Assembly: GCF_016026235.1 (NCBI RefSeq)
Contig: NZ_CP065613.1
DNA: 64,000 nt
From: Escherichia coli
Lineage (GTDB): Bacteria; Pseudomonadota; Gammaproteobacteria; Enterobacterales; Enterobacteriaceae
Reading direction: 5' to 3' (one strand)
Below are positions 25,773 to 54,050 of this stretch, piece after piece; position 1 is the first letter of the stretch, and each line of letters opens with the position of its first letter. The notes under the pieces are model-generated. The model was not told the origin of the DNA and searched no databases. It saw only the letters and a program-made list of their open reading frames with translations. Made by a program: the position numbers and the translations under genes.

Positions 25773-25780
25773 TTCATTTA

Positions 25781-26153: not shown

Positions 26154-26160
26154 GTGTGTG

Positions 26161-29740: not shown

Positions 29741-29775
29741 GTCAACATATCCTGAATCAGACATACAATATCGCA

Positions 29776-30042: not shown

Positions 30043-30358
30043 TATAATAAACTTACTTTTTTATCATTTTTCCACTTTAACAACATTTTGCTCCACTTTT
30101 CCACGACCAAACAACTTGAAATCTGGTTAAAATAACACGCAACACTATTCTTCTTCCTTGAGTCCGCCCGGAACTCGAAAAACAAACCGAGTTAAAGCCA
30201 TTTTTCACAAAATCGATTTTGGGTCTCACCAAAATTACGGGGTTGCATACGCATTCGTTTATTTTCGAACGTGTACATACAAATATGCACAAAAATAATC
30301 ATAATTATTTTCTGAGATGCATTATGATATGAACACCAATTTCGTATAGAGTCTCACT

Positions 30359-30949: not shown

Positions 30950-31046
30950 AAAATAATCTCGGTGTGAGATGCTTTACGTCTTCCAAGCCCCCTTCCTTGC
31001 CGTAAATGGAAAGATACATCTAATTATAGAATTTATATGTTTTACC

Positions 31047-31622
31047 CTACGGCAGTGCTGGCCATTCAATATCCTGTGCAGTTGACGTATCAACACGGTT
31101 CAGCAATACCCGATACTTTTTCCATGCTTCCAGCAACGAGATTTCTTCCTCCGTTGCAATTTCCAGATCTGCAGCATCCTGAAGCGGCGCAATATGCTCA
31201 CTGGCTACCTGCATCAGGTTGTTTTTTGTTTCTTCCGCCTCCCGGATCCGGAACAGTTTTTCTGCTTCCGTATCCTTCACCCAGGCTGTGCCGTTCCACT
31301 TCTGAAACTCCCCTTCCGGCGATAACCAGGTAACATTTTCCGGTAACGGACCGAGTTCAGAAATAAATAACGCGTCGCCGGAAGCCACGTCATAAACCGT
31401 TTTACCCCGATGATCTTCAACGAGATGCCACGATGACTCATCACTGTTGAAAACAGCCACGAAGCCAGCCGGAATATCTGGCGGTGCAATATCGGTACTG
31501 TTTGCTGGCAGACCTGTATGAGGCGGAATATATGCATCACCTTCACCAATAAATTCATTAGTTCCGGCCAGCAGATTATAAATTTTTATGGTCCGTGGTT
31601 GTTCACTCATTCTGAATGCCAT
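31047..31622 (-). CDS. tfaQ: Tail fiber assembly protein Tfa
   Basis: 191-aa ORF directly downstream of the stf C-terminal segment. Confidence 0.85.
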
Positions 31623-34600
31623 TATGCAAGCCTCACAATATAGTTAAATGCGATGTTTTTGACGGTGTTTTCCGCGTTACCAGCAGCGTTAACGGTGATG
31701 GTGTGTCCATGTGAACCAATCGCAACGGAGTGCGTATGAGCACCAATACCGACAGTATGCGCGTGTGCACCTGCAGATGCTGCTGTGCCGGACAGTGAGT
31801 GGCTATGATTACCATCTGTACTGGTATTAGCTAACCACCCCGTAGACATACCTACTGAGCCTTGTACACCCCAGGTATTTTGACCTGAGCTTGTATAACC
31901 ATATTGATAAGTATCTTTAAAAACACTGGGGTTAAATCGACGGCCATCTCTATGGCTGTGATTACCAGCTGCATTCGTGCTGCCACTTAAACTATGGGTA
32001 TGCGCACCAGTGTTATTCGTGGATTTAGTGCCGTAATCAAACGACGATGTGGTTTTCGTCCCCAAATCCGTACTGGATGCGCTGGCGCTGTGGGTATGCG
32101 ATTTAATGCCGTCCTATTCCTGAGACAATACGGCCCGACCACTGGTAGGTTTGCCCTTAATCGTCCAGCCACGCATATCAGGGATCACGCCTGACGGATA
32201 AGCCGCTGCAAGTTTCGGGTATGCAGATTTGTCAAAAGTCTGCCCCTGCATCAGGGCATAGCCAGACGGAACGGTATCTGATGGCCACGGGATTGGTGCA
32301 CCGACTGGATAAAACTCTGCAGGAGGATGAGCCGAGGTGTAAAGCTGCGCCCACGGCGACCAGTTTGCGTCGGTCGTATCCCGTCGTGAACGAATAAATG
32401 CCGGAGCATGAGCACCGCTTGTACCACTCCAGCCGATGAGTAACTCACCTTCGCCAACGGCTGTCATCCCTTTCAGGTGAATGATATTTCCATACGCTGT
32501 TGGATATCCGTTGTTATACACCTCGTATAACTCAAGACCTGTTGCCCCCTGCGTATTGTCTGTCAGCGCGGTTACCCGACCTTTTGAAGACAGATTAACT
32601 GATGATACTGCTGTTCCACCTGACGGTAACGCCCCGATCTCTGATGCCGTTGGCTTATTTCTGGAGTTATAGTCCCTTCGCCAGCCAGGTGAATAATCTG
32701 TTCCGTGATTAATATAGGTAAACTGGGCGTTAGTTGTTCCACCACCAGTGGAGGTGGTCGGTGTGGTAATGCGGATCGTCATCGCTGACTTTATCCCCAT
32801 TACTTCAATGACAGCTCCGGCGAGATGAATATTACCGCAGTCAGTATCAGTAATGATTTTATTATTGCCATAAGACCAGGAACCCTTGCACATCCAGTAG
32901 GGATGGTTAAATGCTCCCTGAGAATCCAGCCACTCGATAAACTGTGCAGTCGTCCAGTTTCCTGTTATTGTGCTTACTGACCCACCAAAGGCACGGCAGG
33001 CACCAATATTTTTCGTAAAGGTGTCTTTGCCAGGGATATCCGCACCGTTCTGATCTTTCTGCAGACGTTTCTCAGCATTGTCATAGGCTGTTTTTACTGC
33101 CTTTGGTGTCGCGGCAAGCGTTTCAGACGTGCTGTTGGTCGCGCTGCTTAGCTGGATTATCCCTTTCTGTGCTGTCGTTGCATCCTGTGCGGTGTATTTC
33201 CCGTTAGCCAGGTCATACGCGGCCTTAACGGCTTTTGGTGTTGCCGCCAGTGACTCGGAAGTGCTGTTAGTCGCACTACTGAGCTGTACTATCCCCTTTT
33301 TCGTCGTGCTCGCATCCTCAAGCGCCACAGCGGATGCAATATCCTCTGCCCGTTTTGCTGCTGTCTCGGCGCGCGTTGCTGCGGATTCTGCCGTACTCTT
33401 GCTCTGTGCTGCCGCCGTCGCACTGCCAGCAGCCTCTGTTGCCTTCGTGGATGCCGTCGTGGCGCTGCCCTTCGCTGCTGACGCTTGTCTGGTCGCCTCA
33501 TCTTTTGAAGCAGACGCCGATGAGGCCGATGACGCCGCCGAACTGGCGGACGATGCGGCAGCCGTTTTTGAGGATTCTGCGCTGGTTTCCGACGCTTTCG
33601 CGTTCGTTTCGGATGTCTTCGCTGCGGAAGCTGACCTCGCTGCTGCGCTGGCCTGTTCAGTGGCTTCGCCAGCCTTCGTTGTGGCTGTTGAAGCGGATGA
33701 TGCGGCGCTTTCTGCCGATTTTCCGGCGGCGATGGCACTGGCTGAGGCCTGCCCGGCACTTGTTGACGCGGCACTGGCAGACGACGCAGCCGCTGTTTTT
33801 GAGCCTGCCGCAGCTGAGGCGCTCTGTCCCGCTGCCGTCTCAGAAGACCTGGCGTTCGTCTCGGACGTTTTTGCCGCCTTCGCGGAATTTGCTGCCGCCG
33901 TTGCCGAGGAAGCTGCGCTACTGGCGCTCGAGGATGCGTTCGTTTCTGATGATTTTGCCGCCTCTTTTGAAGCCGACGCATCCTGGGCTGAGGTGGCAGC
34001 TTCTGACGCTTTCGTAGTCGCGGTGGATGCAGAAGTGGCTGCTGATTGTTGTGACGCTGCAGCATTCGTTTCTGACGTTTTCGCGGCACTGGCACTGGTA
34101 GCTGCCGCGCTTTTTGAGGACTCTGCAGCGGCAGCACTTTTTGATGCTTCAGTGGCCTTTGCTGATGCCGTTCCTGCGCTGGAAGACGCTGACTGAGCCG
34201 ACGACGCGGCCTGTCCGGCTGACGTGCTGGCTGCGCGTGCTAAGCCTGCAGCATCAGTTGCATGGGTTGCCGCCTCACGGGCTGATGTGCCGGCATCGCT
34301 GGCTGACTTCTTCGCGGCTGCTGTGTTCTGTGCCACCGCGGACGCGTTACGCGCCACCTCTTCCACCATCAGTTCAAAACGTCGCAGTGCCTCCGGACGG
34401 GCATCATCCTCCGTCATGGCACCGAGAAAATCATTCAGCGTACCGGGTTGAGAATCTTCATACACGGTGATGGTCCCGGCATGTGACGGCGGGAATCCTT
34501 CCACCAACAGAATAACGCTGTACTGACCGTACTCAACGTCCATGCTGTAACGCCCGGCTTCATCCGGATTTTCTGAGGCCAGCGTGTTCACCACCACCGC

Positions 34601-34693
34601 GGTGCTGTTACGTTTTGCTTTCAGCTGGATTGTGCAGTTCTGTACCGGTTTTCCTGTGCCGTCTTTCAGTACACCTGAAATCTTTACTGCCAT
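31622..34693 (-). pseudogene. stfQ: Side tail fiber Stf, interrupted by an in-frame amber codon at 32114-32116
   Basis: 873-aa ORF (lambda-Stf-like [26 protein letters not shown]... start at 34693) and a 147-aa ORF with His-rich tail-fiber repeats share one frame, separated only by TAG. Confidence 0.7.
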
Positions 34694-34756
34694 ATTCACC
34701 CCACAAAAAGCCCGCCTGAACCAGCGGGCTGTCATAACACTGTGTTACCTGGCTAA

Positions 34757-35356
34757 TCAGAACTTATAACCGACACCCACGATGAAACCGTCAGTGCGCC
34801 AGTCGCCACTGCCGGAACCTTCATAAGCAAGGTCAATGGCCACGGATTCGGTCGGGTTAAACTGCACGCCAGCTCCCCACGCCAGAGACGTGTTGCTGTG
34901 GCGACCGTCATCACTTCCGGTCAGCACGTCGTGCGTTTTCCCCTTGTTGTCAGTTACGCGGAGATAATCCCCGGAGAAAGTCGACACACGGCTGTAAGCC
35001 ATACCCGCCATCGCATACGCGCTGAACCATTCATTCACGCGCACAGACGGCCCCACCATCACGCTGAACCAGCGGTTACGCACGGAATCTTCATGCCAGC
35101 GGGTATCGCTGTAACGGGTAAGCTGGCGATTCTTGTCTCCTGCATAGCTGAATGACGTCACCAGCCCCAGTGTGTCCGTAAACTCATAACGGTATTTCAC
35201 GTTAATCCCGTTAAGATCATCGCTGCCGGGAACGTTCGTCGAGGCATGAAGATACCCCGCGCTCAGCGTGGACTGATGTTCAGATGCCCATGCAGGCGCA
35301 CCGGATACGGCCAGACAAATGGCTGCGGACAAAATGGCGGCATAAAGTTTACGCAT
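34757..35356 (-). CDS. lom: Lom-like outer-membrane protein (Ail/Lom/OmpX family)
   Basis: 199-aa ORF with signal peptide and beta-barrel pattern, ending ...VGVGYKF. Confidence 0.85.
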
Positions 35357-35380
35357 AATTACCTCTCGCTTTTCTGCAAT

Positions 35381-35404
35381 AAAAAAGGCACCATTTCTGG
35401 TGCC
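35381..35404 (-). terminator. Hairpin plus U-run on the minus strand between J and lom
   Basis: Minus strand reads GGCACCAGAAATGGTGCC followed by TTTTTT. Confidence 0.45.
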
Positions 35405-35425
35405 CTTATATGGGTTATAACAATT

Positions 35426-38838
<3,413 letters not shown>

Positions 38839-38895
38839 TCACGCTCCATAAACGACAAAACCGCCCGGAGGCGGTTTCACATAAAACGTTTTTCA

Positions 38896-39543
38896 TCAGC
38901 GACCAATCACCACAACCTGACCACCATCCCCTTCGTCTGCCGTGCGGATCTCCTGAGAGACCACCCGCGACCCCACGCGCATTTCACCGTACAGAACGGG
39001 CAGAACATTGCCCTGGGCAACCATGTTATCCAGTGAGGAGAAATAGGTGTTCTGTTTGCCGTTATCTGTACTTGCTGCCGTGGGCGTCCTGGCTTTCGGT
39101 GCCAGCATCTGCGCCACTCCGCCCAGGATCATACTGGCCCCTGCCGCATACATGCCCGATACAGCCGCGGCACCCAGCCAGCCCACAGGGTTCCACCATG
39201 CCACCGCAATCAGCGCCACCCCCAGCACCACCTGAAACACACTGCCACTTTTAGCTCCCGCCAGACGCGGCACGATGTGGATCACGGCACCATTTGCCAG
39301 CGGCTCATTAAGACGGGCAGACAATTCGGTTTCACCTGCATCACGCCCGGCAATGCGTACCTGGTACCAGCCGTCGCTCAGTTTCTGACGAAACGCCGGG
39401 ATCTGCATGGCCAGCGCCCGGATGGCTTCGGACCCCGTTTTCACTCGAAGGTCGATGCGGCGGCCAAATCGTTGTAAATCCCCGTAAAGGCAGATGCGTG
39501 CCATGCCCGGTGACGCCAGAGGGAGTGTGTGCGTCGCTGCCAT
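38896..39543 (-). CDS. Tail assembly protein I (lambda gpI-like)
   Basis: 215-aa ORF in lambda gene order. Confidence 0.85.
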   Translation of the reverse strand: MAATHTLPLASPGMARICLYGDLQRFGRRIDLRVKTGSEAIRALAMQIPAFRQKLSDGWYQVRIAGRDAGETELSARLNEPLANGAVIHIVPRLAGAKSGSVFQVVLGVALIAVAWWNPVGWLGAAAVSGMYAAGASMILGGVAQMLAPKARTPTAASTDNGKQNTYFSSLDNMVAQGNVLPVLYGEMRVGSRVVSQEIRTADEGDGGQVVVIGR

Positions 39544-40193
39544 TTGTCGGTGTACCTCTCTCGTTTGCTCAGTTGTTCAGGAATATGGTGCAGCAGCTCG
39601 CCGTCACCACAGTAAATGGCGGCATGATTCGGCACCGATGAACCAAAACAGCACAGCAGCACATCGCCCGGCTGCGCCGCTGACAACGGCACCTGATACA
39701 GCCCTGTGGCCTCCAGATTATCCAGATAGAGATTCTGACCGTTACGCCACCAGTCATCCTCGCGATGAAAATCCGGCATCTCAATCCCCGCCAGATGGTA
39801 AGCATCCCGGAACAGCGTGTAACAGTCCGTCACCCCGTGCTCAAAGCGCCGCCCGGAAAGATGTGGCACACAGCGGAACTTGTGAATCGCCCCCCGGCAA
39901 ACCAGCCACCACGGCAAATCACTCTGCACCTGCAGCCGCCGGTCGGTCTCACTCAGCCAGGGCAGACCACCGGGGTGGCTGTGGACCAGCGCCACAATCT
40001 CACCCTGCATCTCTGCCCGCAGCCAGTCCTCCGGCGACATCCGGAAATACTCCTCCGGCTCACCGGAGATATTCACGCAGGGAAAATATCTTTCCCCCTC
40101 CGGTGTTCTCACCACGAAGCCGCACGACTCCGCTGGCGCACATCGCCGGGCGTGCGCCAGAATCGCTGATTCTGTCTCTGTCATGGGATTCAC
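39441..40193 (-). CDS. Tail assembly protein K (lambda gpK-like, MPN/NlpC-P60 type); 3' end overlaps I
   Basis: 250-aa ORF with HSHPGG (JAMM-like) and Cys-His peptidase-type motifs. Confidence 0.8.
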   Translation of the reverse strand: MNPMTETESAILAHARRCAPAESCGFVVRTPEGERYFPCVNISGEPEEYFRMSPEDWLRAEMQGEIVALVHSHPGGLPWLSETDRRLQVQSDLPWWLVCRGAIHKFRCVPHLSGRRFEHGVTDCYTLFRDAYHLAGIEMPDFHREDDWWRNGQNLYLDNLEATGLYQVPLSAAQPGDVLLCCFGSSVPNHAAIYCGDGELLHHIPEQLSKRERYTDKWQRRTHSLWRHRAWHASAFTGIYNDLAAASTFE

Positions 40194-40888
40194 TGCGAAA
40201 GTTTGTTAATGGAAAGGAAGCCGCCAAAGTTGCCGACGTTATTGCGAAACTTACAGCCGCTCAGGCATTTGCTGCATTTATCCTTCGTGATATCGGAGGT
40301 CGGCTGGTCATATTCATCCGCGACCGCCGGACCGTGATAACCGCACTCATCACCGCGATAGGTCCAGGTGCAGGTATTAGCCAGCATGATGCGCCCCGGA
40401 AAAACAGCGCCGTCCGTTTCCGTCGGCGTGGACAGTACAAAAGAGGCACTCACCGCGCTCAGTTCGCTGCACTGCTCGATGCGCCAGCGGCTGATCACCT
40501 CCTGCTCCGGATCGGCGTCACTGTTTCCGTTGACGAAGTTCACCGCATCCAGAAAACGGGCGTAAACCTTACGCCGGACCACCGTTCCTCCGACCAGACT
40601 CTGCAGGTCTTCCGCCATCCCGGTGACCATGCCGTGCAGGTTAGAAACCGTCAGTGTCGGACGGGCAGCACTGCCTTTGCCGTTCAGTTCAAATCCCGTC
40701 CCCTGAATGGGATACGCCTGATACTGTCGCCTCTGCCAGGTGACCGGCTCACCTTTATCGTTCTGCTCATTACAGAAAAAATAACGCTCACCACCGACCT
40801 CTGTCAGATCGATTTCCCAGAGCTCCACCCGGACTGACTGCTCCGCACGGGTGCATTCATTCAGTGTTTCCTGCCGGATATCCTGCAT
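40190..40888 (-). CDS. Minor tail protein L (lambda gpL-like)
   Basis: 232-aa ORF, same length as lambda L, in order. Confidence 0.85.
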   Translation of the reverse strand: MQDIRQETLNECTRAEQSVRVELWEIDLTEVGGERYFFCNEQNDKGEPVTWQRRQYQAYPIQGTGFELNGKGSAARPTLTVSNLHGMVTGMAEDLQSLVGGTVVRRKVYARFLDAVNFVNGNSDADPEQEVISRWRIEQCSELSAVSASFVLSTPTETDGAVFPGRIMLANTCTWTYRGDECGYHGPAVADEYDQPTSDITKDKCSKCLSGCKFRNNVGNFGGFLSINKLSQ

Positions 40889-41217
40889 CAGTTCACCACC
40901 TGTTCAAAATCGGCCGTTACAGTCACCCATAACGCCCCCACGCTTGCCGACCATTTACGACAAACCACCCTGATCGGTTTCCAGTCATAAGGTGGCGTCC
41001 ACTGAAATGCGCGGACGCCACCGTGCCGTTCCAGAAAGGCTTTTAAAGATGGGTGTTCACATTTACGAACACGTATCGTCACGCTGTAAATCGACAACTG
41101 GTTATTCAGTCCCGCCGCACGACGCTGTTCATAACCATCGCCCAGCTTCACTGTCACCACTTTCGGCTCTGATACCACATTCATATCCGGGCGCACTTTC
41201 CAGTGAAACGTCTCCAT
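40888..41217 (-). CDS. Minor tail protein M (lambda gpM-like)
   Basis: 109-aa ORF, same length as lambda M. Confidence 0.85.
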   Translation of the reverse strand: METFHWKVRPDMNVVSEPKVVTVKLGDGYEQRRAAGLNNQLSIYSVTIRVRKCEHPSLKAFLERHGGVRAFQWTPPYDWKPIRVVCRKWSASVGALWVTVTADFEQVVN

Positions 41218-44200
41218 TACCGATATGCTCCACTTAACCGACCACCATCACGGGCCTGCTGTTGCATAAAGTCCGCTGCCGCTTTTTTCCCAAGGTCATA
41301 AACCACCTTCAGGGCAGCCGGACCTATCTGCCCGTTCGTGCCATCGTTATTGATCTCGATGTTGTACTGCGGGGCAAACATCGCCATACCTGAACCACCA
41401 ATATCCGCCACAACCCCCAGCTTACCGTCAGCACCACGACGCAGTGGCAGAATGGCTTCAGGTCCAGCTTCCCCCATCACACCCGCGCCTTTTGCAAAAG
41501 CAAAAAACGTCGGACGGTTAACCACCGTGCCACTGTAACGACTCAAATCAGCAGACTGATAAATCCCCCCATTGGCATTCAGGGAAAGGCTGCTGAGATC
41601 AAATCCCAGTACACTGCCAATCCCTTTTATCGATTTCATCATGGTTGCCTGCGCCAGGATTTTCGCCATATCTGACAGCACCGAAGAGGTGAAGGATTTG
41701 AAGTTGAGTTTGCCGGTAGTGACAAAAGTTGCCAGGCCATTTCCCATGTTGCTGAAGGCTGATGAGAACACCTGTTCTGCTGTTCCTGCCGTATTGTCTG
41801 CATCCACGGTAAAATCCTGAAATGCACGCAGGACTCCGTTTTTCCAGTTACCCTGCACAACTTCAAGCTGTTGCCAGTAACGGCGATTCTCATTCAGTTG
41901 TCGGTTCAGGCTCTCCGTCAGCGCCTGCTCGGCCTTTCTGTAGTCATCCGTGTTATATGTCCCTTTCTGCTCACTATCCCGCCTCAACTGCTCCAGCTGT
42001 TGCTGGTATTTCTGGCGAAGACTCAGTTGTACCTGATATCGCTGCCGCTGCTGATCACCCATACCCACCGTGGCGATATCCAGGTCATGTTGCTGACGCT
42101 GAGCGCGCTCTTCTTCAGCCAGTTGACTGGTCAGCTGAATTGTTTTTTTCTTCAGATCGTTGAGTGCCGTTTGTTTCTGAAGCTCCTGCTGTTTTACATC
42201 CAGCAGCGTCAGTGCCTGAATCAGCTCATTCTTACGGGCCAGCACACTCTTTTCATCTGCCGTCAGCTTTTTCCCGTCCAGGTCGCTGATGCGCTGCTGC
42301 AGGGCCAGAAGCTGTTTATGCGCTTCAGTCATCCTTTCAGTGGCAATGCCTGCTGACTGTCTTGCAGCAGCAATCTGTCCTTCCACCTGTGCCTGTTGCT
42401 GACTGTACTGCAGCAATAACCGGGTGGCCTCATCATTACGGGTTTCGCGTGTTTTTTTCTTACCGGATGCCAGGGCTTTCTCGTAACGTTCATTTTCACG
42501 TTGTATCGCCGCATCCCTGACAGCCTGGTCGGCGTACTGCATGGCATTAATACGCGCAATTTCACGCTGATGTCGTGCTGCTTCCGTTTCATTCATCCGG
42601 TTCAGTGCAGCATTTTCAGCATTACGTCGTTTCTGTTGCTCCTGATAATTCCGCTCTGCCTGCTCTTTTGCATCCTGCAAATCCTTCTGGCGTTTTTTCT
42701 CCTGAAGATCGTTAAGACGCTGCTGATCGTATTCAACCTGAGAAGATGATGCCGTCCAGGGGAGTCTTTTCGCCCGCGACACTTTCTCCTGTAAAGCGGT
42801 AATCTGTTCATCCAGCGAGTCTTCACGACCAATATTCATGGCCGCATCCCAGAAACGACTCCACAAATCAGACAGATACTTCAGCGTACTGCCAAGCGCA
42901 TTGAGGTTATTATCAATATCCGCAGTACGCCGACCGGTTTCCTCTGCCAGTGCAGACATGGCTATCCGTGCAGCATCACTGGACCGTCCCTGATCCCCAA
43001 GGACACGTATCTGCTCAAGCTGAGTGGCAGTAAGAAAATGCAGCTCATTGTCCAGAGCCTTCGCGGCATTTACAGGATCATCCTTCAGCCGCTTAAACTG
43101 ATTTATGGTATCGCTGACCGACTGGCCAACCGATCGCTCCATCTGTGCGGCAGCTCTCGCCACCATACCGATATCGTTTCCACGAAATGCACCACTCCCC
43201 ACCACCTGCGCCAACGCACCGGCTGCAGCATGTTGCGTGATACCATTCCCGGAAATAGCACGACTGAGCGTCCACAGCTGCCCGGCAGTGACTCCGGCAT
43301 AATGCCCCGTCAGCGACAACTGGCGGTTAAATTCTTCCCCCTCCTTCTGACCGTCATACCAGGCTTTACCCAGACCATAGACGGCCGCGGCAATACCGCC
43401 AATAACCCCGCCAAGCATCATGCCTTTCGGTGACATCAGTGCGCCTGTCCATCCGGCACGGTTAGCCAGCGTTATCCCGGATCCCCTCAGCGCCCCTAAA
43501 TTGCCGCGGGCCAGTTCACCTATCAGAACGCCTATCTCCTGGCGGGCTGCTGCACTTTTCAGACCCAGCGAATGCGTGGCTTTTCCTGCCTGCTCCATTT
43601 TGCGGATATACACTTCTGCAGCACTGCTTACCCCCAGCTGGGCTGCCCTGGCGCGAAGCAACTCAGAAGATGAAAGATTCTGGCGGGTTGCCTGCTCTTT
43701 AAGCTGACGGATAAACGCCACTTTCTGTCGGGTAGCCTCTTCCTCAGCCTGTGTAAGAACACGGGTTTTCGCAGTAACCTCAGAAATCAGCGCCAGATAA
43801 TCCTGCTGACCAATCCCGCCACTGTTTCTGGCCTGTCGGATCTGCTGCTGAATACGCTGTAATTCCTGCAGCCCCGCACTGGCCTGTTTCACACTGTCAA
43901 TCTGACGATAAAACGCAGCAGCCGCTTTATCCTGAGCCTCCGCCAGAGCCATGGCCTGCGCCTGTTCCTCGCGCATTTTCTGGCTCAGCGCCTCCATGCG
44001 CTGGCGGGTTTTCTCCACCTCGCGGGCCATGCGTTCATGAGCCTGTGCGTTCTTCTCCACCGTCTGCGCATGGACGGATGCGGCTGTTGCAGCCGAAGAA
44101 GCCGCCTGCGTTGTCTGCCGGGCGGCCTGAGTCTGACGCTCCATAAAACGCTGCATACGGGCAGAAGACCGTTCTGCATCGCTGGCTGCACCATTCAGAA

Positions 44201-44282
44201 GGTTTTTGATACGGGGAATTTCATTTTTAAACTCTGCCGCATCAATCCCCAAATCAATGACCAGGTTGGCTATCTGGTCCAT
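41217..44282 (-). CDS. Tail tape measure protein H (lambda gpH-like), start taken at MDQIANLVIDLGIDAAEF
   Basis: ORF 41217-44312; coiled-coil-rich about 1020-aa protein with gpH-like N- and C-termini (...NNDGTNGQIGPAALK...). Confidence 0.85.
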   Translation of the reverse strand: MDQIANLVIDLGIDAAEFKNEIPRIKNLLNGAASDAERSSARMQRFMERQTQAARQTTQAASSAATAASVHAQTVEKNAQAHERMAREVEKTRQRMEALSQKMREEQAQAMALAEAQDKAAAAFYRQIDSVKQASAGLQELQRIQQQIRQARNSGGIGQQDYLALISEVTAKTRVLTQAEEEATRQKVAFIRQLKEQATRQNLSSSELLRARAAQLGVSSAAEVYIRKMEQAGKATHSLGLKSAAARQEIGVLIGELARGNLGALRGSGITLANRAGWTGALMSPKGMMLGGVIGGIAAAVYGLGKAWYDGQKEGEEFNRQLSLTGHYAGVTAGQLWTLSRAISGNGITQHAAAGALAQVVGSGAFRGNDIGMVARAAAQMERSVGQSVSDTINQFKRLKDDPVNAAKALDNELHFLTATQLEQIRVLGDQGRSSDAARIAMSALAEETGRRTADIDNNLNALGSTLKYLSDLWSRFWDAAMNIGREDSLDEQITALQEKVSRAKRLPWTASSSQVEYDQQRLNDLQEKKRQKDLQDAKEQAERNYQEQQKRRNAENAALNRMNETEAARHQREIARINAMQYADQAVRDAAIQRENERYEKALASGKKKTRETRNDEATRLLLQYSQQQAQVEGQIAAARQSAGIATERMTEAHKQLLALQQRISDLDGKKLTADEKSVLARKNELIQALTLLDVKQQELQKQTALNDLKKKTIQLTSQLAEEERAQRQQHDLDIATVGMGDQQRQRYQVQLSLRQKYQQQLEQLRRDSEQKGTYNTDDYRKAEQALTESLNRQLNENRRYWQQLEVVQGNWKNGVLRAFQDFTVDADNTAGTAEQVFSSAFSNMGNGLATFVTTGKLNFKSFTSSVLSDMAKILAQATMMKSIKGIGSVLGFDLSSLSLNANGGIYQSADLSRYSGTVVNRPTFFAFAKGAGVMGEAGPEAILPLRRGADGKLGVVADIGGSGMAMFAPQYNIEINNDGTNGQIGPAALKVVYDLGKKAAADFMQQQARDGGRLSGAYR

Positions 44283-44583
44283 AACGCACACCTCCGGAAA
44301 TACCTTCCCCAAGATGCATCAGTTCTTCGTCCGTTCGCTCCGGTATCCCGTTCTCTTCCGGTAAAAGGCTGAAATCAGCCACCGCAGCATCACTGCTGCC
44401 GGACACCATTCTCACGATCAATGCCTTCAGCGAGGCAAACTGCGCATCCATCCACACATCACTGAAGCTCTGCATCCGGAAATAATCGCCCCACTCACCA
44501 AGCTCAGTGGCCGACATTTCCGACAGCATCCGCCGCCAGTCTGCCCGCCTGAACTCCCGGGCAAGCCGCATGACAAACTGCAT
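44254..44583 (-). CDS. gpT frame of the tail assembly chaperone pair; expected to be made only as a G-T fusion by -1 frameshifting
   Basis: 109-codon ORF in the -1 frame relative to G, overlapping the G 3' end and the H 5' end. Confidence 0.55.
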   Translation of the reverse strand: MQFVMRLAREFRRADWRRMLSEMSATELGEWGDYFRMQSFSDVWMDAQFASLKALIVRMVSGSSDAAVADFSLLPEENGIPERTDEELMHLGEGISGGVRYGPDSQPGH

Positions 44584-44591
44584 TTCCCGCG

Positions 44592-44978
44592 TCAGGACTT
44601 TTCCGGCGTCAGCACCTCATGCTCCAAATCCCCGGCATTCTCAATGGCTCCCATACCGCTCAGCGACAGAACCATCTCCGCCCCCGCTCCCAGGGCATCA
44701 TACGACCATGTTGTAATAACGGATGCGCAAAGCGTCTCAACATCCTGAGACTGTTCCGCATTCCACAGTGAGCGGGAAACCAGCCAGGCATTGATATCCA
44801 TCCCCATCCGTAGAAAAGCAATCTGTCGTTCAGCCTCCGGCAGTTCTCCCTCTTCGGCATCAAACTTTGCCGTTCGCTGCTGAACAAACGCCAGATATTC
44901 AATTCTCTGCAGCCCGGACAGCTCACTGAGCACCACGGACTGCTTTTCATAATTAAACGTGCCCTGTTTCAGAAACAT
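44592..44978 (-). CDS. Tail assembly chaperone G (lambda gpG-like)
   Basis: ORF 44592-44996; start at MFLKQGTFNYEKQSVVLSELSGLQRIEYLA, similar to the lambda G N-terminus. Confidence 0.8.
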   Translation of the reverse strand: MFLKQGTFNYEKQSVVLSELSGLQRIEYLAFVQQRTAKFDAEEGELPEAERQIAFLRMGMDINAWLVSRSLWNAEQSQDVETLCASVITTWSYDALGAGAEMVLSLSGMGAIENAGDLEHEVLTPEKS

Positions 44979-45037
44979 CATGTTCTCCGGATGCAAAAAG
45001 CCCCGGATAACCGGGGCAAATGATGAGTATCGTCCTG

Positions 45038-45669
45038 TTAACCTGCGGCGCTGACAGCCACCGTAGCCACTGCCACAAAATCGCCGTCAGAAGTCATGCC
45101 CACAATGCTGACACTGCCCTGCTTCACGCCTTTCACCGTGGCAGTCTGTGGATCTGTCGAATGCACACTGATCGCTTTGTCACTGGCTCCGTCAGGTTTT
45201 ACTGTAAAGGTCAGCGTGGTGGTTGCTCCCGCTTTGACACTGGCAGATGCCGGTGCCATCGTCAGCCCGGTAACGCCCACGATTTCAGTGCCTTCCTCTG
45301 CCAGATACGGAAAACATCAACAGTACCGTTGGGATATTTGATACGAAAAGCGCAGACTTCACCGGAGTCGAACAACTGAACCAGTTTTTTCTGCCCGCTG
45401 TCCCCCGGACGCCAGGCCAGCGTCGCCGAAGTATCACCGACTGATTTCTGCCCCTGGGTTGTCGTTTTCCAGTCTGCATCTTCATCATCGAGATAAGTGT
45501 CATCTTCTGCATCAGCGGTCATTTCGCCAGGTTGCAGATCCTTCACCATCGCAAGACGCAGCCAGTCAGTGTCCGATAAAGGGTTCGCAAACGCATCGCC
45601 CTTGCCGGTATACATCCAGAACGTCGTTCCCGCACCTTTCGTTTTTGCCAGTGGATTTGGTGTGGTCAT
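45038..45669 (-). pseudogene. Major tail protein V, disrupted by an out-of-frame internal deletion
   Basis: N-terminal part ([18 protein letters not shown]...VDVFR, then 14 out-of-frame codons and stop at 45262) and C-terminal Ig-like part (...[25 protein letters not shown]...) lie in different frames; about 30 codons present in lambda V are absent. Confidence 0.65.
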
Positions 45670-45679
45670 TACCACCTCC

Positions 45680-46081
45680 TTAATTCGTGTACGTGATCTG
45701 GTACGTGATTTCCGCCATCGCCCAGGTGGCCATCTCATTATCACGTTGATAGTTAAAACCGAGTGGGATCAGGGTGTCGATGAGTCCGGAAAGTGCTGGT
45801 ACATCATTCAGGGCCGGGAAAATGGTGCTCTCCATCCACATATCCAGCTCTGAATCCGGTGCCTGTGCCCGGATGAAGACAGCAATATGCAGAACAGCCT
45901 GCCAGTCATCTTCATCCGTCATTTTTCCGGTGTACTGAGCATCACTCAGCCACACCGCCACGGCAGGCAGTTCCTGCGCATCAACAAATGCCGGAAGCCC
46001 GTCAAAAAACGTGGCGCTGTCTCCACACTGTTCCCGAAGGCGTGCCAGTACGACCTGGCGGATTTGTGTATGTCGGTTCAT
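45680..46081 (-). CDS. Minor tail protein U (lambda gpU-like)
   Basis: ORF 45680-46093; start MNRHTQIR... at 46081, overlapping the Z stop (ATGA). Confidence 0.85.
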
Positions 46082-46656
46082 CGGGTCAGCCATAACCTCA
46101 GTTGTTGTTTCAGTGCATACCCCAGCTGTTTCGGCATTTCCGCAGCAATGATGCGGTCGCGGGCATCTTCAAATGTCTGTGTCAGCGGTCCGGACAGCGG
46201 GATTTTCACCACATCAATGGGGTAACGATTTTTGCCATCAATACGCCGCATCACATGCCAGCGACCATTCGCCAGTTGCTGAATAAACGCATCCCGGAAA
46301 AGATATTTACCCACCTTCAGCACACTGCCACGGTACTGCAGTTTTCCACCACGCCGGGCCAGTCTGACCCGGGCTGTCCCCAGCTTAATGGCAGGCAGAT
46401 TGCCCCGGTTAACGCGGATCCTGGCCGTCATTTTTCCTGACGGACTGGCTTTAAACACCCGGACACGCTGACGTACCAGTTTCAGGGGGATCCCTTTCAC
46501 CTGGTTATCTCCCGCAACGGTATTCCCGGCAACCTGCCGGGTGGCAACCGAGACCGCTTTCTGTGCCACACGGTTTATCGCCCATGCGCTGGCCTGTGGC
46601 ACCATACGGGTATCAAGGCTGTTCAGATTGCGGATGGCATTCTCAAGCCCCTTCAT
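46078..46656 (-). CDS. Tail completion protein Z (lambda gpZ-like)
   Basis: 192-aa ORF, same length as lambda Z. Confidence 0.85.
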   Translation of the reverse strand: MKGLENAIRNLNSLDTRMVPQASAWAINRVAQKAVSVATRQVAGNTVAGDNQVKGIPLKLVRQRVRVFKASPSGKMTARIRVNRGNLPAIKLGTARVRLARRGGKLQYRGSVLKVGKYLFRDAFIQQLANGRWHVMRRIDGKNRYPIDVVKIPLSGPLTQTFEDARDRIIAAEMPKQLGYALKQQLRLWLTR

Positions 46657-46667
46657 CCCACACCTCT

Positions 46668-46943
46668 TTACTCAATAAAGATCATTGGCTTACCGTTAAA
46701 GCGTTCATGCCGTGTGACCGTCCATTGTTGTCCGTCATAAACAACGCGATCACCGCGCCGTGGGCGGTATCCCGAAGAAAACACCACCAGAGAGACCGCA
46801 GGTCCGGACAGAGCATTCAGCTCTGCCAGTGTTTCTCCCGGGATCACAGTCATATCGACATCATTAATCGAGGCTGTCTTTCCCATCTTTCTGACCGTGA
46901 TAGCATCCATACGCGCTGCCAGCCGGGAAAAGGGATCAGACAT
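46668..46943 (-). CDS. Putative head-tail joining / adaptor protein (FII-position gene)
   Basis: 91-aa ORF immediately upstream of Z; assignment by position only. Confidence 0.5.
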   Translation of the reverse strand: MSDPFSRLAARMDAITVRKMGKTASINDVDMTVIPGETLAELNALSGPAVSLVVFSSGYRPRRGDRVVYDGQQWTVTRHERFNGKPMIFIE

Positions 46944-47259
46944 TGAGTTTTACCGGCACTTCTTCTGCACTGGTTCCGGCATCTGCCCAGACAACCCCGA
47001 CCAGCGGATCAGAGCCGCTGTTAGTCAGCTGAATTTTTCCGGACTTCAGATAAACCTTCTTACCCGTTTTCATGTCATCCGTTTTCAGCTTAGGCAGCAT
47101 AAACACACCTTCGGTCATGCCGTCGCCTGTTTCACCCTGTGGAATATCGGTCAGCGCCACCGCAAAAACATCGCCCACCTGCACCAGATCTCCGCTGCTG
47201 ATGGCTGCACTGGCAACAATCGCCACCGTTTTTCCTTCTTCTACAAAATTCTTTGCCAT
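46936..47259 (-). CDS. Hypothetical phage head-associated protein
   Basis: ORF 46936-47304; probable start MAKNFVEEGKTVAIVA at 47259; sits between the capsid gene and the head-tail joining gene. Confidence 0.45.
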   Translation of the reverse strand: MAKNFVEEGKTVAIVASAAISSGDLVQVGDVFAVALTDIPQGETGDGMTEGVFMLPKLKTDDMKTGKKVYLKSGKIQLTNSGSDPLVGVVWADAGTSAEEVPVKLNV

Positions 47260-47345
47260 AACTGTCTCCGCACAGCCCCGTTCAGGGGCTGATTTCAGGT
47301 ACAAAAAAAGCCCTTACGGGCCATCAGAGATGTTGTCTGCGACGT

Positions 47346-49057
47346 TTACGCCGTACATTTCACCAGACCGCGGTGATCAACTGGCGCGACACCGGCGTCA
47401 ATACGCACTTTCGTTGTCACGCCATCCACACTGAAGCCCTCCATCTGATCAATATATGGCGTATCCACACCGTTGAGATAAGCCACTTCAATCGTATCGG
47501 AGCCTTTTGACGCAGCCAAGTAGAAGGTGGTCTGGCTGTTATCATCAAGACGAGGCTCTGCAATAACGGTCGCAAAATCTTTCACCGGGTTAATAATACC
47601 GGCGTTAATGTCAGCCCCCTTGACACTTGAGGAGCGAATGACCTGGTTAGCAACAGACTCCATCGCCGTCGGTACCAGTACGAACGCAGGACGAATATTC
47701 AGATGACGCTCCCCCTCTTTCTGAACGCGCATCAACTGGCGGGCTTTATCCAGCGATGCCACGTCCATTGCAGCGCTCTCCAGTACGTTTGCATGTTTCG
47801 CTTTATCGAACAGACTTACATTATCTGTGGAGATTTTCGGGTTAGACGTCAGAATGGCATAAACCAGATCGGCAATAGTGGATTTCGCCGCACGGCCCAG
47901 TTTCATCGGGACATCGGTCAGCATATTCAGATCATCATTGATAATGGCCTGACGGGTGATACTGAACAGCTCGCCATAGGTCGCCAGTGCAATAGTGGCC
48001 TGTTTATCTCCGGTGGTGACGTATTTATATTCCGCCCCTTCACGCACCTGACGCAGAGCACTGAAGCCCCCCATACCCACACGATGGGCAATTTTAAAAT
48101 CAGACAACTGACCTTTCCGCGTCCACTGTTCATAGGTTTCAGGGGCATCTTCCCAGCCCTGCAGAATGGCTTTGTTCGCAACATCCAGCAGAATATTACC
48201 GAAGTCAGACGTACTGTGTGTGAACGCCGCACCGACCATCTGCATCGGGTTATAACCGGAAACCCCAATACCCCGTTCAGTCAGTGACATACGGGCATAT
48301 TCACGCAGGGTCATCCCGTTGTAGACATTATCACGTTCGGTTTTTTCAAATCCGGCACGCGCCATCAGCGCCTGGCGGATCCCGTCCCCCACAAAATTAC
48401 CGTTACCGGCATAAATATGAGCCGGGGTATTTTTATTGGATGGCGTGGACTCGCGCCCCATCTCGTTCAACAGCTTTTCACGGGCCTGCTCCAGCGAACA
48501 TTCAGGATCGGCAAGACACTGAGCCTGCAGCGTCTGATAACGCCCGCCAAACATGGCAAACAGATCATTAATACCGTTTACACGCGCTTTTTGCTCTGCC
48601 AGTACCTGCGCACGGATGCTGTTTTCATCCACCACGGGTGCTGCTGCCTGCACTGGCGTCCGGGAGGCTTCAGATTCATTATCCTGTACGCGTGGAGCAC
48701 TGTTGCGTGGCGGAGTAATCATGTTTCGAATGGATTCCGGCATCTTTTTAAATTCCTCTGTACGTTTTGACTGAATACATGCCATTGCCTTAACGGCTGG
48801 CGTTACCTGATCAGCAAATCCATGTGCCAGACATTCGGCACCGGACATCCAGGTCTCATCCGCCAGCATGGCAGCAATTTCATCGGTGGTTTTCCCGGTT
48901 TTCTGTGCATAAGCGGGTAACAGAACCGCCTCAACTTTATCGAGCAGGTCGGCATAGGTGCGCATGTCCTCCGCATCACCGCCCGTAAAGCCAAATGGTT
49001 TATGAATCATCATGAAGGTGTTTTCCGGCATAATGACCGGGTTTCCTACCATCGCAA
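47346..49057 (-). CDS. Prohead protease - major capsid protein fusion (HK97-like), 5'-truncated by the IS600-like insertion
   Basis: 575-aa ORF whose first codons (TTG at 49071-49073) lie inside the IS terminal repeat; N-terminal part ClpP-like, C-terminal about 330 aa capsid-like. Confidence 0.65.
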
Positions 49058-49100
49058 TGAGGTGTACTGGCAATAGCGGACACTACCATTTGTTCTTTTT

Positions 49101-49919
49101 TTAAGCAGCCATCTGATGATATTTTTCCCTGAAGGCTGCCGGGGAGATATTCCCCAGACGAGAGTGACGACGCTGACGATTGTAGAAAATCTCAATGTAT
49201 TCCCGTATTACTGAGATGGCTTCATCCCGGTTATTAAAACGATAGTGGCTCAGGCTCTCATTTTTCAGCGTTCCCCAGAAGCTTTCCATCGGAGCGTTGT
49301 CGTAACAGTTACCTTTACGCGACATTGATGTTTTCAGACCAAACTGCTCCTGTATGACCCGGTAATCGTATGCGCAGTACTGTGAACCTCGATCAGAGTG
49401 GTGGATTAGCCCGGCAGGTGGGCGCTGGCTCCTGAGCGCCATAAACAGGGCTTTACCTGTCAGCTCTTTTGTCATGCGCTCTCCCATGGCGTAGCCGACA
49501 ATTTCGCACGTATAAACATCTTTGATGCCAGCGAGGTACAACCATCCCTCCTGTGTGGCAACATACGTCAGGTCCGCCACCCAGACCTGATTTGGTGCTG
49601 TAGGAGCGAACGTCTGGTTCAGCAGATTTGGCGCAACTGGCAGATTGTGGTTCGGGTTCGTAGTCGCTCTGAACTTGCGTTTCTGCTTACAGCGTAGCCT
49701 TAGCTCCTTACGAAGACGTGCCAGTCGGTCACGACCAACGATGATGCCATTCTCTGCCAGCTCCGTCTGGAGCCGCCGGGTTCCATATGTTTCGCGAGTG
49801 CGGATATGTGCCACCTTAATCTCCAGTTTTAGCCGCTCATCACTTTGTTTTCTGTCTGAGGGTTCATGCTGTACCCAGTTGTAATAACCGCTCCTGGATA
49901 CACCAAATACCTGACACAT
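49101..49919 (-). CDS. IS3-family transposase OrfB (DDE integrase domain); normally expressed as an OrfAB fusion
   Basis: 272-aa ORF with ...HHSDRGSQY... and ...GNCYDNAPMESFW... motifs. Confidence 0.85.
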   Translation of the reverse strand: MCQVFGVSRSGYYNWVQHEPSDRKQSDERLKLEIKVAHIRTRETYGTRRLQTELAENGIIVGRDRLARLRKELRLRCKQKRKFRATTNPNHNLPVAPNLLNQTFAPTAPNQVWVADLTYVATQEGWLYLAGIKDVYTCEIVGYAMGERMTKELTGKALFMALRSQRPPAGLIHHSDRGSQYCAYDYRVIQEQFGLKTSMSRKGNCYDNAPMESFWGTLKNESLSHYRFNNRDEAISVIREYIEIFYNRQRRHSRLGNISPAAFREKYHQMAA

Positions 49920-49954
49920 CGCTTCAATGGGAAATTGTTGTCGCCATTGTTCGA

Positions 49955-50257
49955 TTAACGCGTATTTTTCAGCGACTCCTGTGCAAAATACGCTGTTGCT
50001 TTTTTTAATATATCTCGCTCAAGGCGAGCTTCATTTAACGCCTTACGCAGTTGCAGAATTTCAGATTCCAGTTCAGCCACCGTGCGGGAGCCAGGAGTAC
50101 CGAGCCCTTTTCTGGCGGCGGTAACCCATTGTCCTAAAGTGCCTTCAGGAAGGGATAATCGGGAAGCGCCTTCACTGATCGAAAGTTGATTTTCAAGAAC
50201 CGTTCTGACAGCTTCGGCTTTGAACTCTTTAGAGTAACGTTGGGTTTTTCTGCTCAT
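49955..50257 (-). CDS. IS3-family transposase OrfA (HTH, leucine zipper)
   Basis: 100-aa ORF MSRKTQRYSKEFKAEAVR...; ends ...LKKATAYFAQESLKNTR with the A7G run (plus 49998-50005) at the LKK codons. Confidence 0.85.
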   Translation of the reverse strand: MSRKTQRYSKEFKAEAVRTVLENQLSISEGASRLSLPEGTLGQWVTAARKGLGTPGSRTVAELESEILQLRKALNEARLERDILKKATAYFAQESLKNTR

Positions 50258-50439
50258 TATTAGCTCCTTCTGATGCCATTCTATTTCAGGAAGGAGTGTC
50301 CGTTAAACTCAGGCTACCTCAGTTTTCCCTGACTCTTACGCCTTTATAAACAAACCAGATACGTAATTTCCCTCCATGGCTTTCCACGCCTGTCGGATAT
50401 TTCATTTCAATTTCTCTCATTAGTTAGTGTGGCTTTTAG

Positions 50440-50691
50440 TCAAGTAAGATGACGTCTTGGTCTTGCTGATGCCTGGCGCTCAATCCAGCGATCAATTTCT
50501 TCCAGGTTGTAAAAGCATGGACTGTTATCCCATGGCATACCGTCATGAGCGACATGCTTATATTCCCTTCCTTCCATAAACGATTTTTCCCGGGCCTTTT
50601 TTAACGTACCTTTTTTTATTCCTTTCAGCGCAATTAACTGCTCTTCGGATACCCATTTGCCGGGAGAGACAATCATGATTACTTCGCTCAT
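50440..50691 (-). CDS. Putative prophage excisionase (Xis-like)
   Basis: 83-aa ORF with a GREY motif as in lambda Xis; adjacent to the recombination-module remnant. Confidence 0.55.
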   Translation of the reverse strand: MSEVIMIVSPGKWVSEEQLIALKGIKKGTLKKAREKSFMEGREYKHVAHDGMPWDNSPCFYNLEEIDRWIERQASARPRRHLT

Positions 50692-50763
50692 CGATTTCTT
50701 TATCTCTTACATCAGACGAGCGCCGGTTGCAGAATACCAGTCACAACCGGCGACAGTTGAACA

Positions 50764-50904
50764 TTAAGAATCAGCCTGACTCGGGATCAGTTTTTGCCAG
50801 ATAACTGAAACGTATTTTGCCTGGTAACGGGCGTCATCAAGTGCATTATGGCGCTCACCTTCGAATGGAATAGCCGTTCTGGCATCGAAGTCTATGGCTT
50901 TCCC
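50764..50904 (-). pseudogene. 3'-terminal remnant (about 46 codons) of a DEDDh-type 3'-5' exonuclease gene, truncated by the IS10-like element
   Basis: Minus-strand frame open from the IS end to TAA at 50764-50766 reads ...PIDFDARTAIPFEGERHNALDDARYQAKYVSVIWQKLIPSQADS*; H-x-A-L-x-D-A resembles the Exo III motif. Confidence 0.4.
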
Positions 50905-52198
50905 CTGAGGAATCCCCAGAAAACAAGACAGGCATAGTGAGATGTGATCTAATTGATTGTGCTAACAATTTCAAGGAGATCACCACTATGCCTGCACGTT
51001 CATTATGCCAAAATTTCCTTAACAACATACTGGCCCCTTTGCATCTTTACCGTCAAAAATCACTGATTGACGCAACTAATGCTGTAATAAATGGCGCTTC
51101 CCTCACACTTACCAGTATCGGGCGTCATTTAACCGGTACGGCATCAGTTAAAAACAAAATAAAGCGGGTGGATCGACTGTTGGGGAATCGACATTTGCAA
51201 AATGAGGTTTCCACCATTTTTCAGCGAATTACCCAAAAGATTACGCGGGGAATGTCTCGTGTTGTGATACTCATTGACTGGAGTGCTTATCATGCCTCTC
51301 GTTTTCAGCTTTTGCGGGCAAGCCTGGCATGTGACGGGCGTTCTTTACCGTTGATGAGTTGTGTCGTTCCATCATCACAGACAGCGAATGCAGATGTACA
51401 TGAGCGTTTTCTGGAATCGCTTGCTGAGTGCTTTTCCCCCGGGACTGATGTCATTGTTATTACAGATGCCGGTTTTCAGGGGCGATGGTTCCAACAGCTC
51501 CGCTCCCGTGGCTGGACCTATATTTGCCGGGTACTGGGCAATCATTATTACAATGTTGGTAATGGCTGGGAAAAGGTGTCGGACTCAGGCACAAAAGCAT
51601 CAACGACAGCAATTTATTTAGGTGAAGGCCTGCTGGGTCGAGATAAAAATGCACAACATGAAGGGCATTTTTATCTTTATAAAAGTAAGCCTAAAGGTCG
51701 TAGATTTAAACGCTCGAAGGAAAGAGCAACCAGACCATCGGTGACGGCTAAAGCTCGTACTGCCGGGAAATCACCATGGTTTATTTTCACAAACAGTACT
51801 GAGTTCTCGCCAAAACAGGTAATGAAATTATACAGCCGTAGAATGCAAATTGAGCAAAATTTCAGGGATGAAAAAAATCCTCGCTGGGGATTTGGACTAC
51901 GGTTTGGTGCCAGTCATTCATCCGGGCGGGTCACGGTATTGAGTCTGATCGCAACATTAGCCAGTATCATTATGTGGTTAAGCGGTTTCAGCCTGGAAAA
52001 CAAAGGGATACATCATAAATATCAGGCAAATACAGTGAAGCACAGGCGAGTCATCTCGTTATTAAAACTGGCGGAGAATGTGATTCGACATTCTCCACTC
52101 ATACTAAACACACTGTCACTTGACGCAGGGCTGAAAGTTCTACAGCAACGGTATACCAATATGATAATGGTTTACTAAATTTTCTGGGGATCCCTCAG
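50905..52198 (+). mobile_element. IS4-family (IS10-like) insertion sequence with 18-bp terminal inverted repeats CTGAGG(A/G)ATCCCCAGAAA
   Basis: Left end 50905-50922 CTGAGGAATCCCCAGAAA; right end 52181-52198 reverse-complements to CTGAGGGATCCCCAGAAA (17/18); single transposase ORF. Confidence 0.75.
50988..52178 (+). CDS. IS4-family DDE transposase (IS10-like); start at MPARSL preceded by AAGGAG
   Basis: ORF 50937-52178; YREK signature (Y-x2-R-x3-E-x6-K in YSRRMQIEQNFRDEK); segments resembling the IS10 transposase as recalled (IKRVDRLLGNRHL, ITDAGF, YQANTV). Confidence 0.8.
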   Translation: MPARSLCQNFLNNILAPLHLYRQKSLIDATNAVINGASLTLTSIGRHLTGTASVKNKIKRVDRLLGNRHLQNEVSTIFQRITQKITRGMSRVVILIDWSAYHASRFQLLRASLACDGRSLPLMSCVVPSSQTANADVHERFLESLAECFSPGTDVIVITDAGFQGRWFQQLRSRGWTYICRVLGNHYYNVGNGWEKVSDSGTKASTTAIYLGEGLLGRDKNAQHEGHFYLYKSKPKGRRFKRSKERATRPSVTAKARTAGKSPWFIFTNSTEFSPKQVMKLYSRRMQIEQNFRDEKNPRWGFGLRFGASHSSGRVTVLSLIATLASIIMWLSGFSLENKGIHHKYQANTVKHRRVISLLKLAENVIRHSPLILNTLSLDAGLKVLQQRYTNMIMVY

Positions 52199-52824
52199 CA
52201 GTCAGCCCCGCTCTCTTTCGCTTTTTCCAGTCGTTCATCAATGCGATCGGCAACAATCACATTTTTAACGTTATAGACGCCTTTTAATACCTGAACGATC
52301 GTCAGGCCGATTGGACCGGCACCGTAAACCAGAACGGTATCATTTTCAGTCGGTTGACCATGGCCGGTTACGTTAGCCGCAATGGTAAAAGGTTCGATCA
52401 TCACCGCATATTGATCGGCCACTGCTTCAGGAATTTTCCACGCATTTTTTGCCGGAACCACGGCATATTCACTGAAACCACCGTCAGCGTGCACACCTAA
52501 TACAGCCAGTGTCGTACAAACGTTCGGTTTACCTATAGAGCACGGATAGCAATGCCCACAGCTGACCACCGGATCGACAGCAACACGTTCACCGACTCTG
52601 GCGCTTTCCACACCTTCACCCACCGCATCAATGACGCCAAAGAATTCATGTCCAATGACGCGCGGATATTTCGCAAAAGGATTATGCCCACGATAAATAT
52701 GGCTATCTGAACCACAAATTCCGGCAAGTTTCACTTTTACTCGTACTTCACCCGCTGACGGGGTGGGTATTTCACGTTCGACAATCGCCAGTTGATTCGG
52801 TTTTTCAATTAATATGCTTTTCAT
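52195..52824 (-). pseudogene. rspB: Starvation-sensing zinc-dependent dehydrogenase RspB, 3'-truncated at the IS10-like junction (about 208 of about 339 codons)
   Basis: ORF 52195-52848; N-terminus MKSILIEKPNQLAIVEREIPTPSAGEVRVKV and GHE/Cys zinc-ADH motifs present; reading frame runs into the IS repeat and stops. Confidence 0.75.
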
Positions 52825-52835
52825 TATCTTACTCC

Positions 52836-54050
52836 TTACCAGTTCCACAGCGTGCCATCTTCCAGACGTGCGACTGGTAGATAAGCAGGTTCATAGGGAT
52901 ATTTCGCCGCCAGCTTTTCATCGAATTCGATGCCAAGACCCGGTTTGTCTCCCGGATGCATATAGCCGTTATCGAAAGTCCAGTTGTGCGGGAAGACTTC
53001 GAGCATTTGTTCGGAATAACCCATGTATTCCTGGACACCGAAATTGGGGACCCACAGATCAAAGTGCAGCGCTGCAGCCATGCAGACTGGTGACAAATCG
53101 GAAGGACCGTGTGAGCCAGTACGTACCTGATACAGCGAAGCAAAATCGGCAATCCGGCGCATACCGGTAATTCCGCCTGCATGGGTCAGCGTGGTGCGGA
53201 TATAATCGATGAGTTGCTCTTCAATCAGTTGTTTGCAGTCCCAGATGCTGTTGAAGACTTCACCCACTGCGATGGGTGTGACGGTATGTTGGCGAATGAG
53301 ACGGAAGCATTCCTGGTTTTCCGCAGGCGTCGGGTCTTCCATCCAGAACATGCGATAATCTTCAATGCTTTTACCAAAGCGCGCCGCTTCAATAGGCGTT
53401 AAGCGATGGTGCATGTCATGCAGCAAATGTTCATTAAAACCAAACTTGTTACGTACCGCGTCAAACAATTTCGGCATGAAATCGAGGTATTTCTCCGTCG
53501 ACCACAGCTGCTCTTCCGGCCACTGTCCTTTGGTTGCGGGTTCATAAGCCAGACCTTTACCTTTCGACATGCCGTAGGTGGTTTTCATACCAGGGATTCC
53601 GCACTGCACGCGGATGGCTTTGAATCCCAGCTCCTGATGACGGGCATAATCATCCAGAGCTTCATCAATACTGTGACCGGTGGTATGGCAATAAACCATC
53701 ACCCCTTCACGAGACGCGCCGCCGAGTAACTGGTAAAGCGGCATGTTGGCAGCTTTGGCTTTAATATCCCACAGCGCCATATCAACCGCTGAAATGGCCG
53801 ACATCGTAACCGGACCGCGACGCCAGTAAGCACCTTTATAGAAAAACTGCCAGATATCTTCGATACGGTGCGCATCGCGACCAATAAGCTGCGGACAAAG
53901 GTGATCCTGCAAATAAGAGGCCACGGAAAGCTCACGTCCATTGAGGGTGGCATCCCCAAGGCCCGTAATACCGTCCTCAGTGGTGATTTTTAATGTGACG
54001 AAATTACGCCCCGGACAGGTAACAAAAACTTCAGCCTTTACGATCTTCAT
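52836..54050 (-). CDS. rspA: Starvation-sensing protein RspA (enolase-superfamily mannonate dehydratase-like)
   Basis: ORF 52836-54083; start [17 protein letters not shown] at 54050 (404 aa). Confidence 0.9.

Follow-up and report, generated by a model that had tools for sequence, protein, structure and literature searches.

What occupies the position of the major tail protein gene V in a lambdoid prophage whose V sequence runs in two reading frames? In a 64,000-nucleotide stretch of Escherichia coli DNA (contig NZ_CP065613.1, assembly GCF_016026235.1; herein the window), the tail-tube domain of V and its Ig-like domain are encoded in different frames, which could reflect a broken gene, a gene decoded by a programmed shift of frame or an error of assembly. 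The locus is almost certainly a pseudogene of a lambda-type major tail (tail-tube) protein, disrupted by two repeat-flanked deletions and lying in a defective lambdoid prophage at the Qin locus; nothing that we found contradicts this reading.

Two deletions in the major tail protein gene

The upstream fragment is a minus-strand ORF that opens at an ATG (45669; MTTPNPLAK...), behind a strong AAGGAGG ribosome-binding site, and encodes authentic V as far as ...GTVDVFR. Six-frame translation then gives 14 out-of-frame codons and a TGA at 45264-45262. The first-pass annotation had described this organization, and it holds: 389 nt are identical to the intact V gene, and the count of 14 codons and the stop at 45262 are exact. 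The same annotation placed the Ig-like part in another frame, which is correct, and had that frame opening at about 45310; it is open from 45316. Relative to the upstream frame, the downstream one is the -1 frame; its stop codon lies at 45040-45038, and the two frames overlap by 55 nt (45262-45316). Consistent with this, residues 1-132 and 149-247 of V from phage phi458 match different frames of the window in tblastn. A major tail protein with tube and Ig-like domains together in one ORF of ~246 aa is thus not present; the window has two ORFs in different frames, whereas intact relatives have a single 744-nt coding sequence of 247 aa. The two fragments are as follows.

45262-45669, minus strand: V pseudogene, 5′ fragment; authentic V (tail-tube domain) over codons 1-121, then 14 codons out of frame and TGA
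45038-45316, minus strand: V pseudogene, 3′ fragment; Ig-like (Big_2) C-terminal domain, ending ...VSAAG*

The intact 247-aa V of E. coli H9Ecoli (WP_021560209.1; 744-nt coding sequence) was used as the reference for nucleotide alignment. Against it the window sequence shows 389 identical nucleotides, an 85-bp gap, a stretch of near-identity and a 27-bp gap.

45307-45312, minus strand: deletion 1 junction; 85 bp lost, frame shifted; the breakpoint is not placeable within the repeat
45133-45143, minus strand: deletion 2 junction; 27 bp lost, in frame, inside the Ig-like domain

About 30 codons had been reported missing at the first of these sites. An internal deletion is indeed found there, and its size is 28 codons plus 1 nt, corresponding to residues 122-149 and equivalent to G122-P149 of lambda; the two residues that follow (YL here, SM in lambda) are kept in the downstream frame. 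The second deletion, which the first-pass annotation did not mention, removes approximately residues 205-213 (ATVTLNGLV) of the Ig-like domain. Both segments are present in V of the isolated phages phi458, mEp460, cdtI, Ayreon and Tritos. Because lambda gpV, all solved gpV structures and the V genes of isolated phages have both segments, the difference is a deletion in the window copy and not an insertion in its relatives.

Short direct repeats lie exactly at the ends of both lost segments in the intact allele; the window copy keeps one repeat of each pair and has lost the other along with the intervening DNA. A search for direct repeats at the junction had been suggested when the deletion was first noted, and it was productive: the repeats flanking deletion 1 in intact V are TCCGTGGCTGGCTGAG and TCCGTATCTGGCAGAG, which match at 13 of 16 positions and share a perfect TCCGT core. 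Across this region intact V reads GATGTTT[TCCGTGGCTGGCTGAG...GGGGCG]TCCGTATCTGGCAGAG, where the outer brackets enclose the lost segment, and the TCCGT copy that was kept lies at 45311-45307. Deletion 2 is flanked by a perfect 10-mer, GCCACGGTGA, whose copies are 27 bp apart and constitute the longest perfect direct repeat at close spacing in intact V; the retained copy is at 45142-45133. Among all possible deletions of 10-200 bp in the intact V gene, microhomology of at least 5 bp is expected in 0.86% and of at least 10 bp in 0.009%.

Since both junctions carry this repeat anatomy, we infer that replication slippage or microhomology-mediated illegitimate recombination made both deletions. For deletion 1, the 5-bp perfect core alone is modest evidence for slippage, as ~0.9% of random deletions equal it; the extended 13/16 match, along with the 10-bp repeat at deletion 2, strengthens the case. 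Two independent small deletions, each between paired short direct repeats of which one copy was kept, broke V. The 85-bp event cuts the tube-forming N-terminal domain and shifts the frame, such that translation ends once 121 authentic residues have been followed by 14 of junk.

Consequences for the tail-tube subunit

In lambda, the tube-forming portion of the protein, gpV-N, comprises residues 1-156, and its β-sandwich is the core of each hexameric ring (PMC8718954, PMC10721106). When gpV lacks the entire Ig-like domain, tails still form, with 100-fold lower activity (PMC8718954, PMC10721106). The 85-bp lesion falls within gpV-N and not in the dispensable Ig-like domain. Solved structures of lambda V align over the whole intact homologue, residues 122-149 included. 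Profile comparison points the same way: the window ORF matches positions 1-107 of the 135 in Phage_TTP_12 (PF16461; E = 1.5e-52), whereas the intact homologue matches positions 1-135, so that the window V does not cover the full-length tube-domain profile. The Ig-like domain lacks nine residues, including one predicted β-strand, relative to all intact homologues, and still scores above the cut-off of Big_2 (PF02368; 31.2 bits, cut-off 22.8), compared with 44.3 bits for the intact protein.

An AlphaFold model of intact V predicts β-strands at residues 117-127 and 137-144 in the N-domain and at 205-210 in the Ig-like domain. The model was built from a seven-row alignment, and its pLDDT is ~55-67 in the N-domain (low confidence) and 80-94 in the Ig-like domain; for the N-domain strands, the main support comes from the published structures of lambda gpV. 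Because the lesion lies inside gpV-N, the profile match is partial and the frame is broken, we infer that no intact or functional tail-tube subunit can come from this locus. The first-pass annotation had reached the same view, and the alignments to intact V genes agree with it.

A defective prophage at the Qin locus

V lies in a remnant whose gene order in the window is ydfK, pinQ, tfa, stf, lom, J (frameshifted), I, K, L, M, H, T, G, V (broken), U and Z; beyond Z are two head-tail genes and a protease/capsid fusion gene that lacks its 5′ end. The order Z, U, V, G, T, H is that of phi458, with V lying between the tail terminator gene U and the chaperone genes G and T, and V is flanked by genes with Phage_tail_U and Phage_TAC_2 domains. 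The host context is that of Qin, with ydfJ, ydfK, pinQ and tfaQ on one side and rspB and rspA on the other: the left flank carries ydfI- and ydfJ-type genes, a YdfK sequence, a Pin-type invertase and tail-fibre assembly and tail-fibre genes, and the right flank carries rspB, rspA, speG, ynfC, ynfE and ynfF. In E. coli GPEC87-32-644 the same locus is annotated ydfI-ydfJ-ynfT-ydfK-pinQ-tfaQ...rspB-rspA. The features that delimit the remnant are listed below.

29100-49073, minus strand: Qin-locus lambdoid remnant holding V; boundaries approximate; supported by collinearity with phi458 and by Pfam assignments
47346-49073, minus strand: ClpP-protease/major-capsid fusion gene; first ~81 codons missing, adjoins the IS3-family element
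49101-49919, minus strand: IS3-family transposase ORF (NF033516, E = 8e-100)
50937-52178, plus strand: IS4-family transposase ORF (NF033591, E = 1e-107)
52195-52848, minus strand: rspB, truncated; matches only positions 1-208 of 339 in the oxidoreductase profile NF007489 and directly adjoins the IS4-family element

The two insertion sequences (49101-52178) have severed the late operon at its upstream end, which in window coordinates is the prophage's right end. Because rspB is truncated directly beside the IS4-family element, the IS-associated deletion took host DNA as well as the integrase end of the prophage. What remains is collinear with phi458 only over positions 22734-38814 of that phage, an interval that begins within the protease/capsid fusion gene and reaches the tail-fibre region; no terminase, portal, lysis, Q, replication, immunity or integrase genes remain in the remnant. 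The prophage is defective on several counts: that single interval of phi458 is all that is represented, the 5′ end of the capsid gene is gone and J is frameshifted. We found no shared IS insertion by which to order these events; the IS600 or IS3 element in the capsid gene of 2015C-3107 and GPEC87-32-644 is at a different site.

J (35426-38835, minus strand) is split into ORFs of 948 and 171 aa, with the break at ~36029-36036. One base is missing in or beside a C-run (~36029-36032), the sequence being ACAGCCCCACC here and ACGGCCCCCACC in phi458, and tblastn places the frame switch at residues ~963-966. No recorded protein matched the 948-aa fragment in an exact look-up. J may be truly frameshifted here, or the missing base may be a sequencing error in the homopolymer.

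Other parts of the remnant are well preserved. Escherichia phage phi458 has Z, U, G and T proteins 100% identical to those encoded here (44254-46656, minus strand), and the genes H, L, K and lom have kept their full length. Given this protein identity and the 99.5% nucleotide identity to phi458 over the block running from the capsid gene to V, the remnant derives recently from a phage of the phi458/mEp460 type. With tail proteins that are identical to those of phi458 or full length standing beside broken V, J and capsid genes, the remnant is evolutionarily young and is decaying piecemeal. The element had no means of making virions; the prophage around V is already a gutted remnant, so its inactivation is not due to the V lesion.

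An exact-sequence look-up retrieved both V ORF products from NCBI (STL95684.1 and STL95680.1), each on a 4.56-Mb contig and each named "Major tail protein V [Escherichia coli]". The products also occur in three drafts (GCA_001907395.1, GCA_001907535.1 and GCA_001907545.1; LSGJ01, LSGK01 and LSGL01), all three of which carry an identical 659-nt core with both deletions. Complete genomes give a different picture. A megablast search of 5,426 complete E. coli genomes with the whole gene (window 44990-45700) returned 1,832 records covering the query, none at 99% identity or above; among the matches listed, the whole-gene match falls in two pieces and takes 822 bases for 709 query bases. With a query centred on deletion 1, again no record in the 5,426 genomes reached 99% identity, and among the full-coverage matches listed all span the extra 85 bp. 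A search centred on deletion 2 ranks ties equally, so the absence of deletion 2 from the complete genomes rests on the whole-gene query, to which a genome carrying only deletion 2 would have matched at 99% or more. The whole gene likewise found no contiguous match across either junction in 50,697 phage records; there too, none attained 99% identity, and the full-coverage matches listed all fall in two pieces around the extra 85 bp. An intact homologue with the same sequence across the junction, named at the outset as the finding that would overturn a deletion, was therefore sought in the 5,426 genomes and 50,697 phage records and did not appear in either. By these searches, the lesions are lineage-specific and limited to a very small E. 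coli lineage.

Could the two frames be joined by the ribosome? Ig-like domains are known to be added to major tail proteins by frameshifting (PMC8718954), and a programmed -1 ribosomal frameshift joining the tube and Ig-like domains, as in SPP1 gp17.1*, would fit a downstream V frame that is -1 with a 55-nt overlap. The fused product would, however, still be without 28 conserved residues of the tube domain, and no slippery heptamer (X XXY YYZ) occurs in the overlap at 45262-45316; the only one in the gene, CCCTTTA, is far upstream at 45583. Each intact homologue examined, including those of phi458, mEp460, cdtI, Ayreon and Tritos, is one 247-aa ORF that contains the 85 bp, and the upstream 389 nt show 100% identity with those genes, so that this is a recent deletion and not a diverged architecture. 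We reject programmed frameshifting on the missing heptamer, the missing residues and the single-ORF relatives together, and give it next to no credence. An error of sequencing or assembly in a gene that is truly intact is scarcely more plausible. Single-molecule assemblies do carry indel errors, of which the loss of a single base in the J homopolymer could be one, but gaps of 85 and 27 bp are atypical of sequencing errors, and the same junctions are found in the three independently assembled drafts and in STL95684.1 and STL95680.1. Because identical sequence recurs in other assemblies and in NCBI proteins, the V break is no assembly error, and this candidate too was rejected, on the exact products and the identical core.

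A functional role for the fragment has also to be weighed against loss of function. The putative 135-aa N-terminal product could be expressed and kept as a dominant-negative subunit against the tails of superinfecting lambdoid phages: it retains the ATG and the AAGGAGG site, it retains the E-loop region for ring-to-ring contacts (PMC8718954), and its neighbours Z, U, G and T match the phi458 proteins at 100% identity. If this were so, the fragment could poison tube polymerization of lambdoid phages with near-identical V, a superinfection interference borne by a prophage remnant. Against this, the late-operon promoter and the region of the Q antiterminator are gone, the lesion is in a very small lineage with no sign of selection, and the second deletion, in an Ig-like fragment that is unreachable, points with the J frameshift to general decay. 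We regard a retained inhibitory role as very improbable. Loss of function remains the preferred reading, and because the element had no means of making virions, the V lesions are best read as neutral decay, fixed in one small E. coli lineage.

V is thus an ordinary pseudogene produced by ordinary prophage decay. For annotation, the ORFs 45262-45669 and 45038-45280 should be treated as two pieces of a single dead gene, not as a gene each. NCBI lists the fragments separately, as STL95684.1 and STL95680.1, both under "Major tail protein V", and not as one pseudogene. On a small scale, the repeat-flanked junctions show clearly the erosion of a cryptic prophage, and the paired deletions could mark the lineage of those few E. 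coli isolates in which they occur.

Comparison with known systems

Among the closest known systems is lambda gpV (PDB: 2K4Q, 2L04, 6P3E and 8IYK), to which the intact homologue aligns over its full length with ~55% identity (E = 3.5e-87). Also among them are the 247-aa V proteins WP_021560209.1 and that of phi458, whose first 121 residues are 100% identical to the window V. Lambda gpV and V of the phi458/mEp460/cdtI type share with the window locus its place between U and G and the plan of an N-terminal tube domain and a C-terminal Big_2 domain. Unlike gpV and the 247-aa proteins, the window V is without residues 122-149 and one further base, is without residues ~205-213 and is split between frames. 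The likeness to SPP1 gp17.1* lies in having tube and Ig-like domains in different frames and is superficial: the window V has no slippery site, part of its tube domain is gone and its close relatives are single-ORF.

At the level of the prophage, the remnant resembles Qin of E. coli K-12 and other Qin-locus remnants, which occupy the same site between the same flanking genes and are likewise defective, IS-disrupted and multiply deleted. Unlike those, it keeps a near-complete tail block from Z to stf/tfa, is without the early, lysis, packaging and integrase region, and adjoins a truncated rspB. The Qin remnant of GPEC87-32-644 (NZ_CM142762.1, 3854-16423) has an intact V, a deletion of G through lom and an IS3-family element in its capsid gene, and it retains dicB, ydfD, an exonuclease gene, xis and int. 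Because this remnant has been eroded differently at the same locus, decay at Qin is independent in different lineages. Spontaneous deletions between short direct repeats arise through replication slippage or microhomology-mediated illegitimate recombination. The V junctions, the first with just a 5-bp perfect core in its repeat, do not differ in kind from such deletions.
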